Shown here in pieces: positions 8,954 through 37,519 of a DNA stretch of 44,436 nucleotides (positions are counted from its first letter, which is position 1; every line of letters starts with the position of its first letter). The notes below the pieces were generated by a model. That model had not been told where the DNA came from, made no database searches, and saw only the letters and a list, made by a program, of their open reading frames with translations. The stretch lies in IMG/VR virus record IMGVR_UViG_3300040801_004946; one strand, 5' to 3'. A program made the position numbers and the translations under genes. The stretch is from a virus.

Positions 8954-11900
8954 TCTAAACTTGAATCTTGTACGATTGTTGCACCAATTTCATTAAATGT
9001 ACCTACTCCAGTTATCGTTCCATTGATATAAGTTGTTGTATACGAAACAATATTAATTACAGTAGAATAAAAAGATGTAACTTTAAATGCATCATTAGAT
9101 GGATTAGGAATTATCATGATACAATTATCAAATATAAGTGTCATTGTATATGTTAGTGTTCCAACAGAATTTAGTGCTACTGCTTCATATGTTCCAGCTG
9201 CATTTGTCGATTCAAATCTTGTTCCAACGAATCTTGCTTTAATTTCTGCACCTGCGGTAGTGTCACAAATACCATACATTGCCCATCTATTTGATATTAT
9301 ATGTTTAACATTAAATGTTATAACAGGTCTATTTGATGATGTTGCAATAGAATCTATATAAACTGCAGTTCCACCAAGTCGAGCATCAATTATGTCACAA
9401 TCAAATCGTATGTTTGGATTATTACTGAAATCATCGACTTGTATATCAATAAGTGATAAAGTACCAGCGGTAGATTTTATTATAGTAGGACATTTTACAT
9501 GTATATCATATAAATATTTTGGTCCTGATGCAATATCAATAACTATAATTTCTTCTCCAGTTGCAGTTTGATCTATTTTTTCTGAAACATCAAGAGTTAA
9601 TTTACTAGATGTTGAAGTTGATAACCCTGTAAAATTAATTGATTGAGTTAGTGTAACACTCTTACATTGAATCATTGTATCAGCAGTTGCTGAAAGTGTG
9701 TTTGGAGTAAAGAATGATGAAGTATTAAATACGCCATGTCCATACACATTTGCATCTGTACTATTCCAACTAAAAACATTTGTAGTTGCTGAAACAAACG
9801 TTCCTTCATGGAAATATAAATCAACATAGTCTTCCATTCCTAATGGCAATGATAATGAATATGATCCAGGTAAAATCTCAATTTTTATTCTATTTGCTGC
9901 TGTTGCGACTAATGCTGCTGCTGTTATTGCAGTTTGAATATTATTATATGGTTTCAATGGATCATATAATGCTGGAGTATGCGAAATTGTTCCATCAACT
10001 ACATACGCAGCACCAAGATGTGTAGCAGCATATTCAGCAACCCAACTAGAACCATTATAAGATAAATAACTGCCACTTGTTGATGCAGACGTGTCGACAT
10101 CTGAATGTGTGTCAATAGAACCATCTGCAGAAATCTTTGCAGTGTTAGCTGTAACATCTGTGTTTGCAGAAACTCTAGCTTCTGTGTAATATAAATTAGT
10201 TGAACCTTCAGCTAAATCGTCTGTATCAGCTGGTCCAGATGAACCAGATGTTGATGCTTCAAGTATTGCGTTATCAACATAAGAAATGCTAGCAGTTTCA
10301 ACAAACTCTATATCAGGGTTATTTATAGCATCAGTATTTGATGTTCTAAATGTATCAGCATTACTTATTGCTTCTTCAACTATAATAGTTGGATCTTCCC
10401 AAGATGGATCAGCTTTCCACATACTTATTGCTGTTGTAGTTCCTCCAGATTGATCAATGAATCTTGGTCTTACTAATTTGATAAATGACGGATCGTTGTT
10501 ATCAAGTGCAGTTGCCATTTGTATGTGGAAACCAATGCCTTTATCTTGATCAATATAAAAATTACAATCAATAAATGTGAATTTATGACCATAACAGTCA
10601 TTATCAAGTCTTATTTCAAAACATGCTCCTCTAGCATCTTGTACTATGCCTCTATCTACATTAGCTTGAACATCTGTTATTGTTGTGAAATCGACTAATC
10701 TAGATTGACGACTCATATCAGTGTCAGTCATATCAATTGTAAACAGAGTGTTTCCAGATTTATCTACAACTACCCATTCTCCATTATCTGGATTATGAAC
10801 GGCTGGACTGATTTTAAAATCACAACGATCAAATGTAATAGTATTTCTTCTTTGCCAGAATATATTCCAAGCCATACCACCAATAAACTCTGTTCCGTGG
10901 AATTTTAGATTTGCACCTCTTAAATCTTTACTAGGATTTGATTGATTATTTCCAGTAGTTAAAAGCTTGTCAATATAAAGATCGGCTTCAGCTCTAGGTA
11001 ATGGATTAATTGAAACATCTTCAACAGTAGAAAACTGTTGTACTACAGCAGCTGAAAGGAAAACTTTTGAGTTATATGTAAATGACCAAGTATTAGAAAA
11101 TGAAGCAGATGCACTGATGTACCATTCCCCTTTACCATGGATCCAGTAATTTCCAGCACCATTTGTAAAATCTCCAAATGGTTTGTTATCTGTTCCAGAT
11201 GATCTAATTATTGTTTTTGGTTCACAATAATAATGAATCTCTGGATACGTTTTTGATCCTGAACTCGACGCAACTGAATAGAATCCGTCAAATGCTCTAA
11301 CGTATACCAAATATAAATTATCTGAATCAGCTTGATAAGCTGTATTTGCAGCGTCTGATGCGGCTTCAAATGTTAAATAAGGAGTACCACCAACTGATGC
11401 AGACGTATCATTACCATTTACACCATCAACAATTGCTATATTTGAAGCTAGGAAACTAAAACCATCAACTTCAAATCCATTTAAAGGATTAATTTTAATT
11501 TCTCCTGGTTCCCATTCAGTGCCCGACCAGGTTAAAACTTGACCAGATGTTGATGCTGCAGTTGAGCTGACATCCGAATGCGTTGATATAGATCCATCAG
11601 CTGAAACTTTAGCTGTATTTGCTGCTACATTCGTATTAGCATTTACTCTAGCTTCAGTGTAATAAAGATTAGTTGATCCTTCAGCTAAACCGTCTGTATC
11701 AACTGGTCCAGATCCTCCACCATTAGTTCCATGAAATGCTTCAACTTTTATATCTAGTTCGTCAATAGCACTTGTTACATCTGTGGCTGAAAGAGTGCTT
11801 CCGGAATTATCGTAATAATCTGTAAAAGGTAAACTAGCCCAGTTAGTTGTGCCATCACCTAGTTTATGTTTCTTAAGATCTGTATCATATCCTATTTCGC

Positions 11901-11973
11901 CAACGTCCATTACTGGATTATATGTGCTCCATTGTAGAGTAGTACCTCGTCGCATTTGAATCTTTCTAGCCAT
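8950..11973 (-). CDS. Large tail-fibre / receptor-binding-like protein (1007 aa) with an internal domain duplication
   Basis: The N-terminus MARKIQMRRGTTLQWSTYNPVMDVGEIGYDTDLKKHKLGDGTTNWASLP is the conserved N-terminal module of phage tail fibres, HylP hyaluronidase and Mtd proteins. The body is Ser/Thr/Asn/Gly-rich and looks beta-helix-like. Two ~65-aa segments are near-duplicates (GSGPVDTDGLAEGSTNLYYTEARVNANTNVAANTAKVSADGSISTHSDV and SSGPADTDDLAEGSTNLYYTEARVSANTDVTANTAKISADGSIDTHSDV). Confidence 0.7.
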   Translation of the reverse strand: MARKIQMRRGTTLQWSTYNPVMDVGEIGYDTDLKKHKLGDGTTNWASLPFTDYYDNSGSTLSATDVTSAIDELDIKVEAFHGTNGGGSGPVDTDGLAEGSTNLYYTEARVNANTNVAANTAKVSADGSISTHSDVSSTAASTSGQVLTWSGTEWEPGEIKINPLNGFEVDGFSFLASNIAIVDGVNGNDTSASVGGTPYLTFEAASDAANTAYQADSDNLYLVYVRAFDGFYSVASSSGSKTYPEIHYYCEPKTIIRSSGTDNKPFGDFTNGAGNYWIHGKGEWYISASASFSNTWSFTYNSKVFLSAAVVQQFSTVEDVSINPLPRAEADLYIDKLLTTGNNQSNPSKDLRGANLKFHGTEFIGGMAWNIFWQRRNTITFDRCDFKISPAVHNPDNGEWVVVDKSGNTLFTIDMTDTDMSRQSRLVDFTTITDVQANVDRGIVQDARGACFEIRLDNDCYGHKFTFIDCNFYIDQDKGIGFHIQMATALDNNDPSFIKLVRPRFIDQSGGTTTAISMWKADPSWEDPTIIVEEAISNADTFRTSNTDAINNPDIEFVETASISYVDNAILEASTSGSSGPADTDDLAEGSTNLYYTEARVSANTDVTANTAKISADGSIDTHSDVDTSASTSGSYLSYNGSSWVAEYAATHLGAAYVVDGTISHTPALYDPLKPYNNIQTAITAAALVATAANRIKIEILPGSYSLSLPLGMEDYVDLYFHEGTFVSATTNVFSWNSTDANVYGHGVFNTSSFFTPNTLSATADTMIQCKSVTLTQSINFTGLSTSTSSKLTLDVSEKIDQTATGEEIIVIDIASGPKYLYDIHVKCPTIIKSTAGTLSLIDIQVDDFSNNPNIRFDCDIIDARLGGTAVYIDSIATSSNRPVITFNVKHIISNRWAMYGICDTTAGAEIKARFVGTRFESTNAAGTYEAVALNSVGTLTYTMTLIFDNCIMIIPNPSNDAFKVTSFYSTVINIVSYTTTYINGTITGVGTFNEIGATIVQDSSLE

Positions 11974-12007: not shown

Positions 12008-12853
12008 TTATACGCTTCCGCCATCAATTGGATCTTCATTTTGTGAAGCTGGATCAGGTGAACCACCATCAATTGGATCTTCATTTTGTGAAGCTGGATC
12101 AGGTGAACCACCATCAATATCACTATCAACTTCGTAAACTGAAAACTTTAAACTACCAAATCCATCAAATAATATATCATATTCATTTGTATTTACTGTA
12201 ACGGTGACAAATTCTCCTTTTGTAGTGAATGTTGTTAGATATCCATTTACATTACCAATATCAAATACAAAATCTCCAGCTACATTACCAACTATAAAAC
12301 TTGTACCATCAATCAACACTAATGCTGTTTCTCCTGCTCCACCGGTAAATGTGAAAATAAAAATATTTTTATCGAAATCAACATTTATAATATCACCTCC
12401 TGCTAATTGTATTACTCTAGATGTTGTTGTATTAGTAACAAAAACTAAATCAATTTCATCATCTGTATCAAGTTGCATTCTAGCAACTGAACCTCTCCAA
12501 TATAAAGCGTCTCCTTCTCTAACTCCGCCTTGCGGTCTAATATAATTGCCATCTGGAGAAAAATAACACCAATCTCCAGCATCTGGTCCATTTGGCACTG
12601 TTTTCCCATTTACAAAAACGCGTATACCTGTTCCCGCAAGAGGTTGTTCTTGAACTAGTATATCTGTTGCTAAATCGCCGTCAACTGTTGTCACATTGGC
12701 TGTCATTGCACGATTTTCTTTTGAATCGTATTCTTTTGATGCATTGGCATCTACATATTCTTTCGTCGCACAATCAGAAGCTAATATTGGAGTGATTAAA
12801 TTTAACTTAGGTTGTTTAATAGTTTTGTCTTCAATTTGCTTACCCTTTATCAT
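12008..12853 (-). CDS. Second tail-fibre-like protein (281 aa) with a C-terminal tandem 15-aa repeat
   Basis: The N-terminus contains ...ASDCATKEYVDA..., the D-x-ATK-x-YVD motif common in phage tail-fibre N-termini. It lies directly upstream of the 1007-aa fibre gene on the same strand. The C-terminus is DGGSPDPASQNEDPI repeated 2.2 times. Confidence 0.55.
   Translation of the reverse strand: MIKGKQIEDKTIKQPKLNLITPILASDCATKEYVDANASKEYDSKENRAMTANVTTVDGDLATDILVQEQPLAGTGIRVFVNGKTVPNGPDAGDWCYFSPDGNYIRPQGGVREGDALYWRGSVARMQLDTDDEIDLVFVTNTTTSRVIQLAGGDIINVDFDKNIFIFTFTGGAGETALVLIDGTSFIVGNVAGDFVFDIGNVNGYLTTFTTKGEFVTVTVNTNEYDILFDGFGSLKFSVYEVDSDIDGGSPDPASQNEDPIDGGSPDPASQNEDPIDGGSV
12021..12118. repeat. 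Perfect 45-bp tandem repeat (2.2 copies) encoding the C-terminus of the 281-aa fibre-like protein
   Basis: The units are ccatcaattggatcttcattttgtgaagctggatcaggtgaacca at 12021-12065 and 12066-12110, plus a partial third copy. Confidence 0.9.
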
Positions 12854-12924: not shown

Positions 12925-13222
12925 GAGATTGTTCCCGTAGCCACGATTCTGTTCTATACTTGCATTTATCTAAGCCTCTACCCGGAATCGGCGCCGTTCA
13001 TCCACCATATGATTCCTGTTTGAGTTGCATCCTCAGCAGTACATGCGATAATATATCCTAACAGCAAGCATTGACCGGAGTCAACCTGTGTCTTGGCATA
13101 AGCCTCAGGGTTACTGGGTTGATATATCTACTATTAACCCTTTTTCGTTTATATCTCCTGCTTTAAACGGTGATGTCGTGAGCTTCCTCAGCTTTTCAGC
13201 CGCGCAAGTTCGGAACAATCTC
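12925..13222 (-). ncRNA. rnpB: Candidate bacterial-type RNase P RNA (rnpB-like), ~300 nt
   Basis: This is a GC-richer ORF-free island (~45% GC) with flanks near 25%. The termini pair as a 12-bp P1 helix (GAGAUUGUUCCG at 13222-13211 with CGGGAACAAUCUC at 12937-12925). On the minus strand there are matches to conserved RNase P type A segments. GAGGAAGCUCACGAC matches the GAGGAAAGUCCGGGCUC P4 5' strand. GAUUCCGGGUAGAGGCUUAGA matches AACCCGGGUAGGCUGCUUGA. ACAGAAUCGUGGCUA matches the ACAGAACCCGGCUUA P4 3' strand. The proposed P4 strands can pair (UCACGA/UCGUGG). The P10-P12 region appears reduced. Confidence 0.5.
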
Positions 13223-13282: not shown

Positions 13283-13873
13283 ATGGAGACTAAGTTTAAT
13301 TTAGATTTTGGTTCAATTGAAAAACCTCGTAGTGGAAGTTTAATAGTCTCTAATCCTATGATTGCAGACATAAACTTTTATCGAAGTGTTGTTTTATTGA
13401 CAAAATATTCTCCTGATGAAGGTGCTATTGGATTAATTCTAAATAAACCGACAATGATACATGCAAATGAAACAATGCCGGATTTAGATGAATTTGACAC
13501 TCCATTGTATCATGGCGGTCCAGTTGACCAACATGCCATGTTTATGCTGCATCGAAGAGGTGAAGTAATTGATGACGGAATTCATATTAAAGATGATTTA
13601 TATTGGGGTGGTGATTTAAAGGAAATTCAAAAATATTCATCAATAAATGTTTTAGATTCTTCAGATTTTAAATTTTTATTAGGCTATAGTAGTTGGATGC
13701 CTCATCAACTTGATTCAGAAATTCAAAAACAAGTTTGGAGTGTTTATAATAATTATGATACTTCATTAATTTTTGACAACAATACATCATCAATGTGGAG
13801 AAATGTTTTAAAAGAAATGGGTGGTAAACATAAAATGTATGCAAATTATCCTGTTGATCCCCAATTAAATTAA
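13283..13873 (+). CDS. YqgE/AlgH family protein (UPF0301/DUF179)
   Basis: LIVSNPMIADINFYRSVVLLTKYSPDEGAIGLILNKP aligns with E. coli YqgE [36 protein letters not shown]. The family motifs HGGPV...FMLH and the C-terminal LLGYSSWMPHQLDSEI (vs LYLGYAGWGPGQLEQEI) are present. Confidence 0.85.
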   Translation: METKFNLDFGSIEKPRSGSLIVSNPMIADINFYRSVVLLTKYSPDEGAIGLILNKPTMIHANETMPDLDEFDTPLYHGGPVDQHAMFMLHRRGEVIDDGIHIKDDLYWGGDLKEIQKYSSINVLDSSDFKFLLGYSSWMPHQLDSEIQKQVWSVYNNYDTSLIFDNNTSSMWRNVLKEMGGKHKMYANYPVDPQLN

Positions 13874-17438: not shown

Positions 17439-17510
17439 AACGTACTATATTTTGTTTAGTTGTAAATATAACAAAAAGAATTCAATTAAGAAATAAACTT
17501 TAAAAAATAA

Positions 17511-17539
17511 AAAAGGTTTCCTCCCGGAAACCTTTTTTC
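17511..17539 (-). terminator. Intrinsic terminator downstream of the tandem tRNA-like genes
   Basis: A hairpin ggtttcc-tccc-ggaaacc between an A-run and a T-run, ~85 nt after the 3' end of the first tRNA-like gene on the minus strand. Confidence 0.55.
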
Positions 17540-17621
17540 ACATCAACCAAACAACCATAAATGAATTGTATTAACTTGCTAACTTTTAATATAATCCACT
17601 TGTATTTTAATAGTGGGAAGA

Positions 17622-17730
17622 GAAGGATTCGAACCCCTAAACCCGTGAAGGTAACTTACATACTAGTCGTGCAAGCCGCGACTCTCCTAGTCCATTTACG
17701 TAGACCACTTCGCCGTCTTCCCATTTGTGG
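17622..17730 (-). tRNA. tRNA-like gene (109 nt) with a canonical acceptor stem and T arm but an oversized, non-canonical interior
   Basis: The 7-bp acceptor GGGAAGA/UCUUCCC is perfect, with discriminator A and no encoded CCA. The T loop is GGUUCGAAUCC. The D-arm-like region is GCG-AAGUGGUCUA-CGU. The remaining ~60 nt do not fold as a 5-bp/7-nt anticodon arm. Instead there are extended hairpins (AGUCG-CGGCUUGCA-CGACU; ACUAG...CUAGU). Confidence 0.45.
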
Positions 17731-17735
17731 GGAGA

Positions 17736-17843
17736 GAAGGATTTGAACCTCTAAGCCTGTTAAGGCAACTGAGATACTAGCTATCTGCCTCAGCCGCGAC
17801 TCTCTCATATCTTACGATACCTTCGCCGTCTCCCCTTGTTGTC
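17736..17843 (-). tRNA. Second tRNA-like gene (108 nt), paralogous to the first and 5 nt upstream of it
   Basis: The acceptor GGGGAGA/UCUCCCC is perfect. The T loop is GGUUCAAAUCC. It shares GACGGCGAAG, GAGAGUCGCGGCU and CUAGUAU blocks with the neighbour. It contains a GNRA hairpin (GUAUC-GUAA-GAUAU) and an extended arm (GGCUGAG...CUCAGUUGCC). Confidence 0.45.
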
Positions 17844-18035
17844 AATCTTTCAACTTTTAAGAGTAACTACTTTTAGTAACTCTGTTTGTTTTTGTATGTG
17901 ACAAATATAAAATGTTTTATTTAATCGGTAAAATTTTTTTACAAAAAAAACGATCTTTTTCAGAAATTATATATTGAATTGAGATACTTCAAAATAAACA
18001 ATATATATTTTACAAATGATCTATTTTAACTAACA

Positions 18036-37395: not shown

Positions 37396-37519
37396 TGTAA
37401 GGTGGTGAAATTGGCAACCACACCCGACTGTCTCTCGGGCGGAGAATTGGGATAAAGTAAACATGTCGATCGGATGTTTGCCTAACTGCTCCTTGAAGGT
37501 TCGACTCCTTCCCTTACAG
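37396..37519 (+). tRNA. tRNA-Asp(GUC)-like gene with a 55-nt insertion in the variable region, 124 nt in total
   Basis: The acceptor UGUAAGG/CCUUACA is a perfect 7 bp, with discriminator G. The D arm is GUG-AAAUUGGCAAC-CAC. The anticodon arm CCCGA-CUGUCUC-UCGGG has 5 bp, a 7-nt loop, U33 and anticodon GUC. The T arm is GAAGG-UUCGACU-CCUUC. Between the anticodon and T arms is a 55-nt segment closed by GGAG/CUCC. Confidence 0.5.

Follow-up and report, generated by a model that had tools for sequence, protein, structure and literature searches.

Tandem expanded tRNA-Tyr-derived RNA genes of a huge phage as candidate non-decoding tRNA-Tyr look-alikes

The 44,436-nt stretch of viral DNA analysed here (IMG/VR record IMGVR_UViG_3300040801_004946; hereafter the window) contains, on its minus strand at 17614–17835, a pair of tRNA-shaped genes (108 and 109 nt) separated by 5 nt. 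Copy A (17835..17728, minus strand) begins with GGGGAGA and ends with UCUCCCC and the discriminator A73, and its paralogue copy B (17722..17614, minus strand) is bounded by GGGAAGA and UCUUCCC, again with A73. These ends form acceptor stems of 7 bp, free of mismatches in both copies. Copy A further contains a D stem (GCGA/UCGC), an anticodon stem [GCUGA(G)/(C)UCAGU], a variable arm (GCCU-UAAC-AGGC), and a T arm [(A)GAGG-UUCAAAU-CCUU(C)], and CCA is not encoded. The corresponding parts of copy B are GCGA/UCGC, GCUUG(C)/(G)UAAGU, ACCU-UCAC-GGGU, and (A)GGGG-UUCGAAU-CCUU(C). The T loops are UUCAAAU in A and UUCGAAU in B, both fitting the canonical UUCRANY, and the T stem comprises four pairs plus an A.C mismatch, which is the first T-stem pair in all copies. 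The same pair is present in three independent data sets, namely the window, L196, and L124, the last being a 91%-identical relative. A preliminary description of this DNA had reported a tRNA-like pair with canonical ends at 17622–17843; the pair, its 7-bp acceptor stems, A73, and T arms were verified, but the position was shifted by 8 nt and the strand omitted. It had also considered a class-II type and described an oversized interior without a standard anticodon arm, and we likewise found the interior to be ~23 nt too long.

A promoter-like site lies ~65 nt upstream of copy A (17902..17932, minus strand) and consists of TTTACC (17932–17927) followed by TATATTTG (17909–17902). The promoter scan lists TTTACC-17-TATATT, and the arrangement is that of a Bacteroidota-type −33/−7 promoter; TAnnTTTG is the −7 motif of Bacteroidota. 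Both elements are unchanged in L124, while the spacer separating them varies. Given the positions of this site and of the acceptor 5′ end, 17836..17901 (minus strand) would be the 5′ leader of a dicistronic precursor to be removed by RNase P, and this stretch is less conserved than the two RNA genes. The spacer between the copies, CAAAU (17727–17723, minus strand), has the same letters in L124. A bidirectional intrinsic terminator hairpin of 13 bp with a T run (17509..17538) follows 75 nt downstream of copy B and also closes the convergent rmlC gene. In L124, its stem carries a compensatory change and its loop is flipped, as the loop also is in L196. The tandem co-transcription and the terminator proposed earlier are supported. 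Short ORFs (46–61 aa) across the locus look spurious.

ARAGORN called no tRNA gene in the window, and no Rfam family matched it at the gathering thresholds. Against RF00005, copy B scored 20.3 bits where the gathering score is 29, and had 49 nt in the place of a 17-nt anticodon arm; copy A was not listed. The resemblance to tRNA nevertheless exceeds chance: a scan for a T arm with a mismatch-free 7-bp acceptor stem returned only three GC-rich elements in the 44 kb. The counter-case that the preliminary description had named for its own proposal, a short 37/38 intron in an otherwise ordinary class-II tRNA, was not seen, as ARAGORN in intron mode with default settings returned nothing and the extra nucleotides lie 5′ of the anticodon. 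Intron calls made with -ps80 (Ala/Pro and SeC/Thr) were mutually inconsistent and were disregarded. An identification as tRNA-Sec likewise failed, with no match to RF01852 at E ≤ 10; the helices are 7/5 instead of 8/5 or 9/4, the D stem has 4 bp instead of 6, and no loop presents the anticodon UCA. Plain MFE z-scores of the pair were not significant; therefore, support for the pair comes from comparison and not from folding energy.

Judged by such comparison, the pair derives from a bacterial class-II tRNA-Tyr. It shows the features of this class, i.e., G1-C72, A73, a long variable arm, and the shared D-arm sequence. GAGAGUCGCGGCU is the native D arm of tRNA-Tyr and is identical in ordinary 85-nt metagenomic tRNA-Tyr(GUA) genes, and GGCGAAG...GAGAGUCGCGGCU(GA) is common, letter for letter, to the tRNA-Tyr(GUA) genes at L121 1542–1626 and L123 102–186. 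The D arm and 5′ anticodon stem are identical to those of L121 and L123 over 20 nt, the acceptor is of the same type, and copy A has the same anticodon stem as the L121 gene. The preliminary description was right that GAGAGUCGCGGCU and CUAGUAU are shared by both copies, but the conserved insert that it saw there consists, as regards GAGAGUCGCGGCU with GGCGAAG, of the usual tRNA-Tyr D arm and 5′ anticodon stem. In an alignment with model R1, L121 and L123 were gapped exactly at both insertion sites, and BLAST matches to the 3′ half were annotated tRNA-Tyr genes of jumbo phages. When both insertions were deleted in silico, ARAGORN (default) called a class-II tRNA, and when a canonical loop was substituted as well, it called tRNA-Tyr(gta). 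The long variable arm, canonical T arm, and GUA triplet are alike in the pair and in the tRNA-Tyr of L121, L123, and the jumbo phages. In contrast to ordinary tRNA-Tyr, the pair is 23–24 nt longer, has an added D-loop hairpin and a 13–17-nt anticodon loop with A in place of U33 and with U37, does not encode CCA, and scores below tRNA thresholds.

What has truly been inserted is the sequence that varies from one copy to the other: a 13–19-nt hairpin in the D loop and, 5′ within the anticodon loop, a further 6–10 nt. In copy A, the hairpin GUAUC-GUAA-GAUAU (17807..17820, minus strand) is inserted between AAG and GAGAG(U) of the native D loop and is missing from the tRNA-Tyr of L121 and L123, which show a 13-nt gap in the alignment. 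In copy B, UGGUCUA-CGUAAA-UGGACUA (17688..17707, minus strand) folds just 5′ of GGAGAG (G18G19). The two hairpins thus occupy the same site, in the alpha region of the D loop, and both form, with no sequence similarity and unequal length. The anticodon loop of copy A has 17 nt, GGCAGAUAGCUAGUAUC (17773..17789, minus strand), instead of CUGUAAA, and that of copy B has 13 nt, CACGACUAGUAUG (17659..17671, minus strand), including the 6-nt palindrome ACUAGU. The palindromic loop sequences ACUAGU and UAGCUA might conceivably support kissing dimers. The heptamer CUAGUAU is identical in both loops (17774–17780 in A and 17660–17666 in B). GUA stands two nt from the 3′ stem strand in both copies, keeping the 34–36 register when counted from the 3′ side; it is preceded by A, without U33, and followed by U, without a purine at 37. 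Compared with a canonical D loop of ~7–11 nt and an anticodon loop of 7 nt, the D loops measure 23–28 nt with a hairpin and the anticodon loops 13–17 nt. We also considered whether the added loop nucleotides pair with the variable arm or with the D-loop hairpin; by inspection, such pairings are not kept between the copies or in L124. A suppressor or alternative-code reading of the CUA within CUAGUAU was also rejected, since TAA, TAG, and TGA all end ORFs and CUA is off register from both sides.

The pair is maintained by selection and is not decaying. All 25 cloverleaf pairs form in all four sequences compared, and four pairs are changed on both sides (double compensatory), while a control with the partners slid gave 44–57% pairing; the four sequences come from two closely related strains, so that the covariation rests mainly on two paralogues. 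Between the window and L124, the pair is 98.2% identical and the flanks about 90–93%. The pair differs at 4 of 222 nt and the non-coding DNA flanking it at 29 of 364 nt (Fisher p = 0.0014). The pair is also more conserved than the neighbouring genes (87–94% identity; p = 2e-5). The four differences consist of one G.U to A-U change, one A-U to G.U change, and two loop changes. Among them, G16 to A in the D-loop hairpin of copy A converts G.U to A-U, and the single change in the D-loop hairpin of copy B falls in its loop. With intact helices and a divergence lower than that of the flanks, the earlier argument for selection rather than decay holds.

Judged by the matches of its proteins, the contig is part of the genome of a huge phage of Mahaphage-like type. 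Its MVP-like protein matches only 462–735-kb 'uncultured phage' genomes, and the best DnaK matches are the same genomes, which fall in the Mahaphage clade, for which Bacteroidetes hosts are predicted (PMC7162821). Among cellular organisms, Bacteroidota have the closest relatives of the AlgH-like gene, and the host is probably a member of this phylum. An RNase P RNA-like gene (12927–13220, minus strand; E = 8e-11), which shows compensatory changes in a relative, lies 4.4 kb from the pair, and the contig has a third expanded tRNA-like gene. The phage makes heavy use of Tyr codons (5.5% of codons), and its codon usage is rich in UAU and GAU. The neighbouring ORFs are orphans or have only a 97% relative. 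Two further ideas were rejected: a frameshifted mega-gene at 22.7–30.6 kb needing a frameshift tRNA, as the ORFs there are distinct enzymes, and a diversity-generating retroelement (Mtd_N protein) with the RNAs as primers, as neither a TR/VR repeat nor an RT was found. Elsewhere, locus L198 of LR745206 contained only a tRNA-Cys, and 1–50 kb of LR756501 gave no tRNA and no RNase P match.

In the related 462-kb phage LR756500, four tRNA genes that are canonical in other respects have an interruption in the D-loop region (L192 2738–2871, 3130–3270, and 24864–25000; L193 43193–43341); they comprise Asp GUC, Leu-like UAG, Tyr-like, and one more. The Tyr-like gene, L193 43193–43341, has A33-GUA as in the pair. 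The insertions are homologous AU-rich elements of ~60 nt with the conserved end ...AUUACAGAAWAAA, placed either at the D-loop site of the pair or at the 8/9 junction. RNAalifold gave no consensus structure for these elements, and a helix proposed by eye had one compensatory pair and two mismatches. Like the pair, these genes belong to the same phage group, are missed by tRNA finders, and in two of the four have the insertion just 5′ of G18G19. Unlike the pair, their anticodon loops are of 7 nt, and their elements have neither similarity nor homology to the window hairpins.

Searches for the expansions elsewhere returned no homologue. In viral contigs, one of three expansion patterns gave 120 chance matches and the other two none, and the T-arm/acceptor pattern also gave none. 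All 67 matches in genome contigs were chance matches in GC-rich genomes, none with a T loop, and metagenome contigs contained only ordinary tRNA-Tyr genes and one chance match. Scanning viral contigs around RmlC and DUF932 proteins revealed no homologue of the expansions, and BLAST against phages matched only tRNA-Tyr 3′ halves.

On this basis, we tentatively propose, with a probability of roughly 45%, that the pair represents tandem class-II tRNA-Tyr-derived RNAs of a huge phage that are most likely non-decoding and act as tRNA-Tyr look-alikes. The pair would be transcribed as one precursor from the Bacteroidota-type promoter to the hairpin terminator and matured in a tRNA-like manner by RNase P, 3′ trimming, and CCA addition; the RNase P RNA may be the phage's own, from the RNase P RNA-like gene. 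The canonical U-turn anticodon loop has 7 nt and cannot be made by a loop of 13–17 nt, so that the products are most likely non-decoding; the absence of U33 and of a purine at 37 was also counted in this direction. The look-alikes would occupy proteins that recognise tRNA-Tyr. The most plausible role would be that of a decoy or competitor for host defence nucleases directed at tRNA-Tyr; a second possibility is an RNA chargeable by TyrRS that is kept off the ribosome. As a precedent, tRNA-Tyr is depleted by Retron-Eco7 PtuAB, a defence that phage T5 counteracts by supplying a tRNA-Tyr of its own (PMC11555353). Additionally, anticodon-loop changes in mycobacteriophage tRNAs are predicted to evade anticodon nucleases (PMC10264068). 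Against a mimic role, the heavy use of Tyr codons would equally favour a decoding tRNA-Tyr, and the interruption of canonical LR756500 tRNAs at the same D-loop site favours removable insertions. When an insertion was engineered at the D-loop site of the pair, between C16 and G18, E. coli tRNA-Tyr was undetectable in cells (PMC5397188); therefore, the stability of the unprocessed form is not guaranteed.

The main rival, which we regard as unlikely, is that the genes encode interrupted pre-tRNAs: two tiny intervening sequences, the hairpin in the D loop and the 5′ portion of the anticodon loop, would be excised and the RNA religated by phage-specified machinery. This would yield a working class-II tRNA, which would be Tyr with the loop N-A-GUA-U-N or would have the anticodon AGU with the loop CUAGUAU. 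In favour of this reading, conservation is lowest in the insertions, while both copies have the same residual heptamer, CUAGUAU; removing the insertions in silico restores an ARAGORN-callable tRNA, and the UAU- and GAU-rich codon usage and the four interrupted LR756500 genes, one of them Tyr-like with A33-GUA, point the same way. Huge phages also carry tRNA repair and ligation genes (PMC7162821). However, by inspection the pair has no bulge-helix-bulge motif; its insertions are plain stem-loops without 3-nt bulges around a 4-bp helix, and the extra loop nucleotides lie 5′ of the anticodon. Self-splicing as a group I or group II intron would require far more than the 4–19 nt of the insertions; a group I intron would have at least 200 nt with a P1–P9 core in the anticodon loop, and no Rfam intron matched. 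Pfam scans of the window ORFs, i.e., 44 kb of a genome probably exceeding 400 kb, revealed no splicing endonuclease or ligase domain. We know of no excision of such small tRNA inserts in bacteria or phages, and a literature search found none. Even after excision, the remaining loop would depart from the canonical form (A33/U37, or a Thr anticodon on a Tyr body), and the window hairpins are not homologous to the LR756500 elements.

Somewhat less probable still is a wider proposal, namely a tRNA-maturation layer private to huge phages of Mahaphage type. Interruption or expansion (D loop, anticodon loop, or variable arm) would be a deliberate feature of many of their tRNA genes, with two elements per gene in the window pair, and the transcripts would be matured, or kept as defence-proof tRNA-Tyr mimics, only with phage factors including the phage's own divergent RNase P RNA.

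It is improbable that the full-length RNAs are charged and used directly on the ribosome with their expanded loops, whether as nuclease-resistant tRNA-Tyr or as frameshift or quadruplet readers. GUA is in the 34–36 register from the 3′ side in both copies and the TyrRS identity elements G1-C72, A73, and the long variable arm are present, but the loops of 13–17 nt lack U33 and purine 37. To our knowledge, natural and engineered decoders have loops of 7–9 nt. The difference in loop length between the copies (13 vs 17 nt) argues against a fixed decoding geometry, and the window genes need no recoding, with each of the three stop codons in use and ORFs that are densely packed and intact; insertions in the V arm are, on the other hand, tolerated in translation (PMC5397188). 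We give even less credence to decaying tRNA-Tyr pseudogenes that gathered small insertions after tandem duplication. Such decay would fit the rejection by standard detectors, the disrupted anticodon loop, and the failure to find distant homologues. It disagrees with the intact helices and compensatory changes in both diverged copies, the conservation exceeding that of neighbouring protein genes, the insertions at the same two sites with a conserved heptamer, and the conserved promoter-like site and terminator. The weakest reading by far, RNP components working with the MVP-like protein as vault-like RNAs or with Ro as Y-RNA/YrlA-like partners, had been raised in the preliminary description and is linked to the pair solely by the proximity of the MVP-like gene (MVP shoulder and vault repeat domains), whereas Rfam Vault (RF00006), Y_RNA, and YrlA did not match even at E ≤ 10, the ends form a tRNA acceptor stem rather than one that binds Ro, the MVP-like protein also occurs in other huge phages and its gene lies 14 kb away in a separate transcription unit unlinked to the RNAs, and Pfam scans of the window ORFs found no Ro, Rsr, or TROVE protein.

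Phage tRNAs are now viewed as weapons against host defences that cleave tRNAs. Censuses of phage tRNAs rest on tRNAscan-SE or ARAGORN, both of which miss the pair, and the tRNA counts of huge phages are underestimates whether the RNAs are mimics or interrupted precursors. At this locus, a tRNA-Tyr scaffold that is conserved and structurally whole carries two expansions expected to prevent ordinary decoding. As mimics, the RNAs would add a new tool for anti-defence or regulation; should the insertions instead be excised, these would represent a kind of tRNA intervening sequence new to the bacterial world. A private maturation layer, if true, would add a new class of tiny intervening or lock elements in bacterial-type tRNAs.

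Among known systems, the T4 'species 1' and 'species 2' RNAs (rnaC and rnaD) have tRNA-like ends, are longer than tRNAs, and are encoded in a tRNA cluster with which they are co-transcribed and co-processed. They are not known to decode. Compared by architecture alone, they resemble the pair in being phage-encoded and longer than a tRNA with tRNA-like ends, but they are not recognisably derived from a specific tRNA, whereas the pair is tRNA-Tyr plus two defined insertions. The tRNA-Tyr of T5 and the mycobacteriophage variants (PMC11555353, PMC10264068) are, like the pair, phage-encoded RNAs of tRNA-Tyr type whose differences from the host are concentrated in the anticodon loop. Those tRNAs are decoders with 7-nt loops that replenish or resist; the loop of the pair is near-doubled and accompanied by a D-loop insertion. 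Archaeal tRNA genes can contain multiple small introns at non-canonical positions with bulge-helix-bulge motifs (review, PMC4090602). The pair shares with them small insertions at several positions, including the D loop, in an otherwise intact gene, and differs in having no bulge-helix-bulge by inspection, a bacterial-type class-II body, a bacterial/phage context, and no splicing endonuclease among the window ORFs. Finally, the Spinach-tRNA-Tyr fusion carries a structured insertion at the same D-loop site; of the fusions made, that in the D loop was the undetectable one, and only the V-loop fusion was stable and active (PMC5397188). Compared with Spinach, the natural hairpins of the window are much smaller (13–19 nt).

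The window carries a tandem pair of tRNA-like genes on the minus strand, copy A at 17835..17728 (108 nt) and copy B at 17722..17614 (109 nt), with the spacer CAAAU between them. The preliminary description had recognized the tandem pair but placed it 8 nt off and gave no strand. The canonical tRNA ends that it reported were seen in both copies, namely a perfect 7-bp acceptor stem (GGGGAGA/UCUCCCC in copy A and GGGAAGA/UCUUCCC in copy B), A as the discriminator, and a T arm with four pairs plus an A.C mismatch in the stem and UUCAAAU or UUCGAAU in the loop; CCA is not encoded. The terminating hairpin was likewise confirmed; it has 13 bp, carries a T run, and lies at 17509-17538, 75 nt downstream of the pair. 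ORFs overlapping the locus are short and look spurious. ARAGORN called no tRNA across the entire window, and Rfam at gathering thresholds gave no match. In E-value mode, copy B scored 20.3 bits against RF00005, below the gathering score of 29, and 49 nt took the place of the 17-nt anticodon arm.

To trace the "conserved insert" of the preliminary description, metagenomes were scanned with GAGAGTCGCGGCT and the T loop as the anchor, which returned two ordinary tRNA-Tyr genes and one chance match. Both genes encode class-II tRNA-Tyr(GUA) of 85 nt within tRNA arrays (metagenome loci L121, 1542-1626, and L123, 102-186) and contain GGCGAAG(UUG/UGG)GAGAGUCGCGGCUG. Therefore, the block is no insert: tRNA-Tyr natively has it as its D loop, D stem, and 5' anticodon stem. 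The four available copies of the pair genes were used to build a covariance model, R1, which aligned L121 at 48 bits and L123 at 35 bits and left gaps in these genes at exactly two places, one of 13 nt in the D loop, the other of about 10 nt in the anticodon loop. BLAST with the 3' half returned annotated tRNA-Tyr genes of jumbo phages. Judged from these alignments, the pair clearly derives from class-II tRNA-Tyr, and we consider this ancestry and the two insertion sites to be established.

From 5' to 3', the acceptor stem is followed by C8 G9 and the D arm, whose stem is GCGA/UCGC in both copies and whose loop reads AAG(U), an inserted hairpin, and G(G)AGAG. The hairpin is GUAUC-GUAA-GAUAU in copy A and UGGUCUA-CGUAAA-UGGACUA in copy B. 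G26 stands between the D arm and the anticodon stem, which is GCUGA/UCAGU in copy A, identical to that of L121, and GCUUG/UAAGU in copy B. The anticodon loop has 17 nt in copy A and 13 nt in copy B, compared with CUGUAAA in ordinary tRNA-Tyr, and is followed by a variable arm of 4 bp and 4 nt in both copies and then by the T arm. Since the final five nucleotides of the loop are GUA-U-C (copy A) and GUA-U-G (copy B), GUA occupies the 34-36 register counted from the 3' side; in both copies it is preceded by A, not U33, and followed by U, not a purine. The heptamer CUAGUAU, common to both copies, is the sole conserved sequence foreign to native tRNA-Tyr. Palindromes lie around CUAG in both anticodon loops (17660-17666 and 17774-17780, minus strand), ACUAGU in copy B and UAGCUA and CUAG in copy A, and CTAG is scarce in the window, with 58 occurrences per strand where about 117 would be expected. 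Conceivably, these palindromes serve kissing-loop dimerisation or act as a site at the DNA level.

At default settings, ARAGORN called a tRNA solely once both insertions were removed in silico: tRNA-Thr(agt) when the loop was CUAGUAU and tRNA-Tyr(gta) when a canonical loop was restored. It called nothing for insertion-free versions with A33 loops. Neither ARAGORN nor these deletions returned a standard class-II tRNA carrying a short 37/38 intron, the outcome named earlier as speaking against an unusual RNA.

The pair was found only in two closely related strains. A JGI 3300040781 locus (L196) represents the same strain as the window, with 7 differences in 5.6 kb, and a Logan SRR22297272 locus (L124) is about 91% identical to the window. 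All four sequences form 25/25 cloverleaf pairs, versus 44-57% of cells in slid controls. Double-sided changes affect four pairs (one in the acceptor stem, two in the anticodon stem, and one in the variable arm), and single-sided changes affect three more. The pair differs between the window and L124 at 4 of 222 nt (98.2% identity), compared with identities of about 90-93% in flanking non-coding DNA (Fisher, p=0.0014) and 87-94% in neighbouring genes (p=2e-5). Two of the four differences change G.U to A-U within the D-loop hairpin and A-U to G.U within the anticodon stem of copy A, and the other two are loop positions. The terminator stem carries a compensatory change between the window and L124. 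A promoter-like TTTACC...TATATTTG, which we take to be of the Bacteroidota -33/-7 type, is located at 17932-17902, and its motifs are unchanged in L124 around a variable spacer. MFE z-scores by themselves were unremarkable for the pair; thus, the functional case is built on comparison, mostly between two paralogues. On this comparison, we regard the structure-preserving evolution of the pair as established. The terminator loop (17522-17525) is inverted between the window and L196 (TCCC versus GGGA; four of the 7 differences) and likewise in L124, which is a flip-flop hairpin-loop inversion.

The window, an entire 44,436-bp JGI contig, has a GC content of 29% and is densely coding in the standard code; its stop codons (TAA 35, TAG 6, and TGA 5) show no sign of recoding. 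Its phage context is also established. An 859-aa MVP-like protein with MVP shoulder, vault repeat, and Band 7 domains (918-3497, plus strand) matched, among 50,697 phage records, solely LR756500 (462 kb) and LR756501/LR756503 (735 kb), with 47% of residues identical from end to end, and the best matches of a bacterial-type DnaK were LR756502, LR745206, and LR756501 (62-66%). All these matches are huge phages of Al-Shayeb et al., whose genomes above 634 kb fall within the Mahaphage clade, for which Bacteroidetes hosts are predicted (PMC7162821); that paper does not mention vault proteins, RNase P, or tRNA introns. A YqgE/AlgH-family gene (13283-13873, plus strand) has its closest cellular relatives in Bacteroidota (38-42% identity with Owenweeksia, Rufibacter, and Bacteroidales), a sequence affinity that supports a Bacteroidota host. 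The pair is located within a cluster of glycan-synthesis genes (rmlC, wecB, and several glycosyltransferases), and none of the neighbouring genes has an evident RNA function. Elsewhere, a tail-fibre/tailspike-like protein of 1007 aa (8950-11973, minus strand) has an Mtd_N domain and contains an internal 164-nt repeat (10077-10240 and 11550-11713, 77%); neither a reverse transcriptase nor a template/variable repeat pair was seen, so nothing points to a diversity-generating retroelement. A 45-nt tandem duplication in perfect register, 98% identical, lies at 12018-12107 inside the ORF 12008-12853.

The 430-nt gap between this ORF and the YqgE/AlgH-family gene contains an RNase P RNA-like gene (12927-13220, minus strand), which covers the full RF00373 model in E-value mode at 48.7 bits (E=8e-11), below the gathering score of 84, and has P4-like strands GAGGAA.../...ACAGAA. 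A third relative carries a copy (L199, 50-343, minus strand) that scores 50.2 bits and shows compensatory changes in P1 (U-A to C-G) and P3 (C-G to U-A). No phage-encoded RNase P RNA turned up in our literature searches. Within the specificity-domain region, a 43-nt stretch (13105-13147, minus strand; CGAAAAAGGGUUAAUAGUAGA...CCAGUAACCCUGA) is 91% identical to NC_028940 75787-75829 of the T4-like Pectobacterium phage PM2 (L197, 1501-1543), where the DNA is unannotated, separates the ORF Trna.2 from the tRNA cluster's first tRNA, and has no Rfam match; Proteus, Vibrio, and Bacillus phages gave weaker matches.

R1 and a purpose-made scan for a T arm with a perfect acceptor stem revealed more tRNA-shaped genes that ARAGORN misses. 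A third gene in the window (37396-37519, plus strand; 124 nt), called by neither ARAGORN nor Rfam, forms a clean cloverleaf. Its acceptor stem is UGUAAGG/CCUUACA, its discriminator is G73, its D arm is of the Leu type, and its Asp-like 7-nt loop CUGUCUC has GUC followed by U37 and C38; the variable arm spans about 50 nt and contains the inner hairpin AAACAU/AUGUUU. LR756500.1 has four genes of 134-149 nt within its tRNA clusters (L192 2738-2871, 3130-3270, and 24864-25000, plus strand; L193 43193-43341, minus strand), again with no ARAGORN call or Rfam family. Each has a normal tRNA body into which an AU-rich element of about 60 nt is inserted; the four elements are homologous and share the conserved end ACUYWAAGYYAUUACAG(A/U)AWAAA. 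The elements lie at the 8/9 junction in two of the four genes and in the D loop directly 5' of G18G19 in the other two, the same site as the hairpins of the window pair. The gene at L193 43193-43341 is Tyr-like with the loop CAGUAAA and shares A33-GUA with the pair; an ordinary tRNA-Tyr is present in LR756500 too. A putative long-range helix AUAACUU/AAGUUAU was noted in these elements, for which RNAalifold gave no consensus structure. The elements may represent a new type of intervening element in tRNAs; literature searches found no description of them. The tRNA-rich region of LR756500 also has an amber-suppressor-type tRNA with anticodon CUA (L192 524-592; labelled Pyl by ARAGORN) and a tmRNA (L192 16323-16733).

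A 13-17-nt loop without U33 and purine 37 cannot form a canonical anticodon loop. Because of these expanded loops and their unequal length in the two copies, we favour the reading that the pair encodes non-decoding tRNA-Tyr mimics, tentatively and with a probability of about 0.45. Copies A and B would be transcribed together, and their tRNA-like ends would be matured by RNase P, after which the 3' ends would be trimmed and CCA added. The phage's RNase P itself could do the cleaving; its altered specificity domain might accommodate elbows with a D-loop hairpin. Elements used by TyrRS and other tRNA-Tyr binders are kept (G1-C72, A73, the long variable arm, and GUA), and the mimics could act as decoys or competitors for host nucleases directed at tRNA-Tyr. 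As precedents for such a role, Retron-Eco7 PtuAB depletes tRNA-Tyr, which T5 tRNA-Tyr counters (PMC11555353), and phage tRNAs vary in the anticodon loop (PMC10264068). A caution for the mimic reading is that E. coli tRNA-Tyr was destabilised when an insertion was engineered into the same D-loop site, while V-loop insertions were tolerated (PMC5397188); this is also a hint that the V-arm-expanded gene at 37396-37519 may still decode.

The main rival, excision of both insertions to give a working tRNA, is unlikely but draws on the interrupted genes of LR756500, heavy UAU codon use by the phage, and insertions that vary while CUAGUAU stays constant. Against it, inspection shows no BHB motif, the insertions are far smaller than self-splicing introns, Pfam scans of ORFs in the 44 kb showed no splicing endonuclease or ligase, such excision is not known from bacteria or phages, and the loop left over would remain odd. 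Less likely than excision is direct decoding with the expanded loops, which we judge improbable. Slightly less probable still are pseudogenes, given the fully formed cloverleaves. A vault-like or Y-RNA-like RNP component is the least credible; Y_RNA, YrlA, and Vault gave no Rfam match at E<=10, and neither did tRNA-Sec.

Compared with known RNA classes, the pair fails the loop criteria and score thresholds of canonical tRNAs and does not belong to tRNA-Sec, Y RNA/YrlA, vault RNA, BHB-intron tRNAs, or group I intron tRNAs. In its probable mode of action, it resembles phage anti-defence tRNAs and, presumably, the stable RNAs of the phage T4 tRNA cluster. We place the pair among phage tRNAs or tRNA-like RNAs, as represented by two closely related strains and 44 kb of genome.
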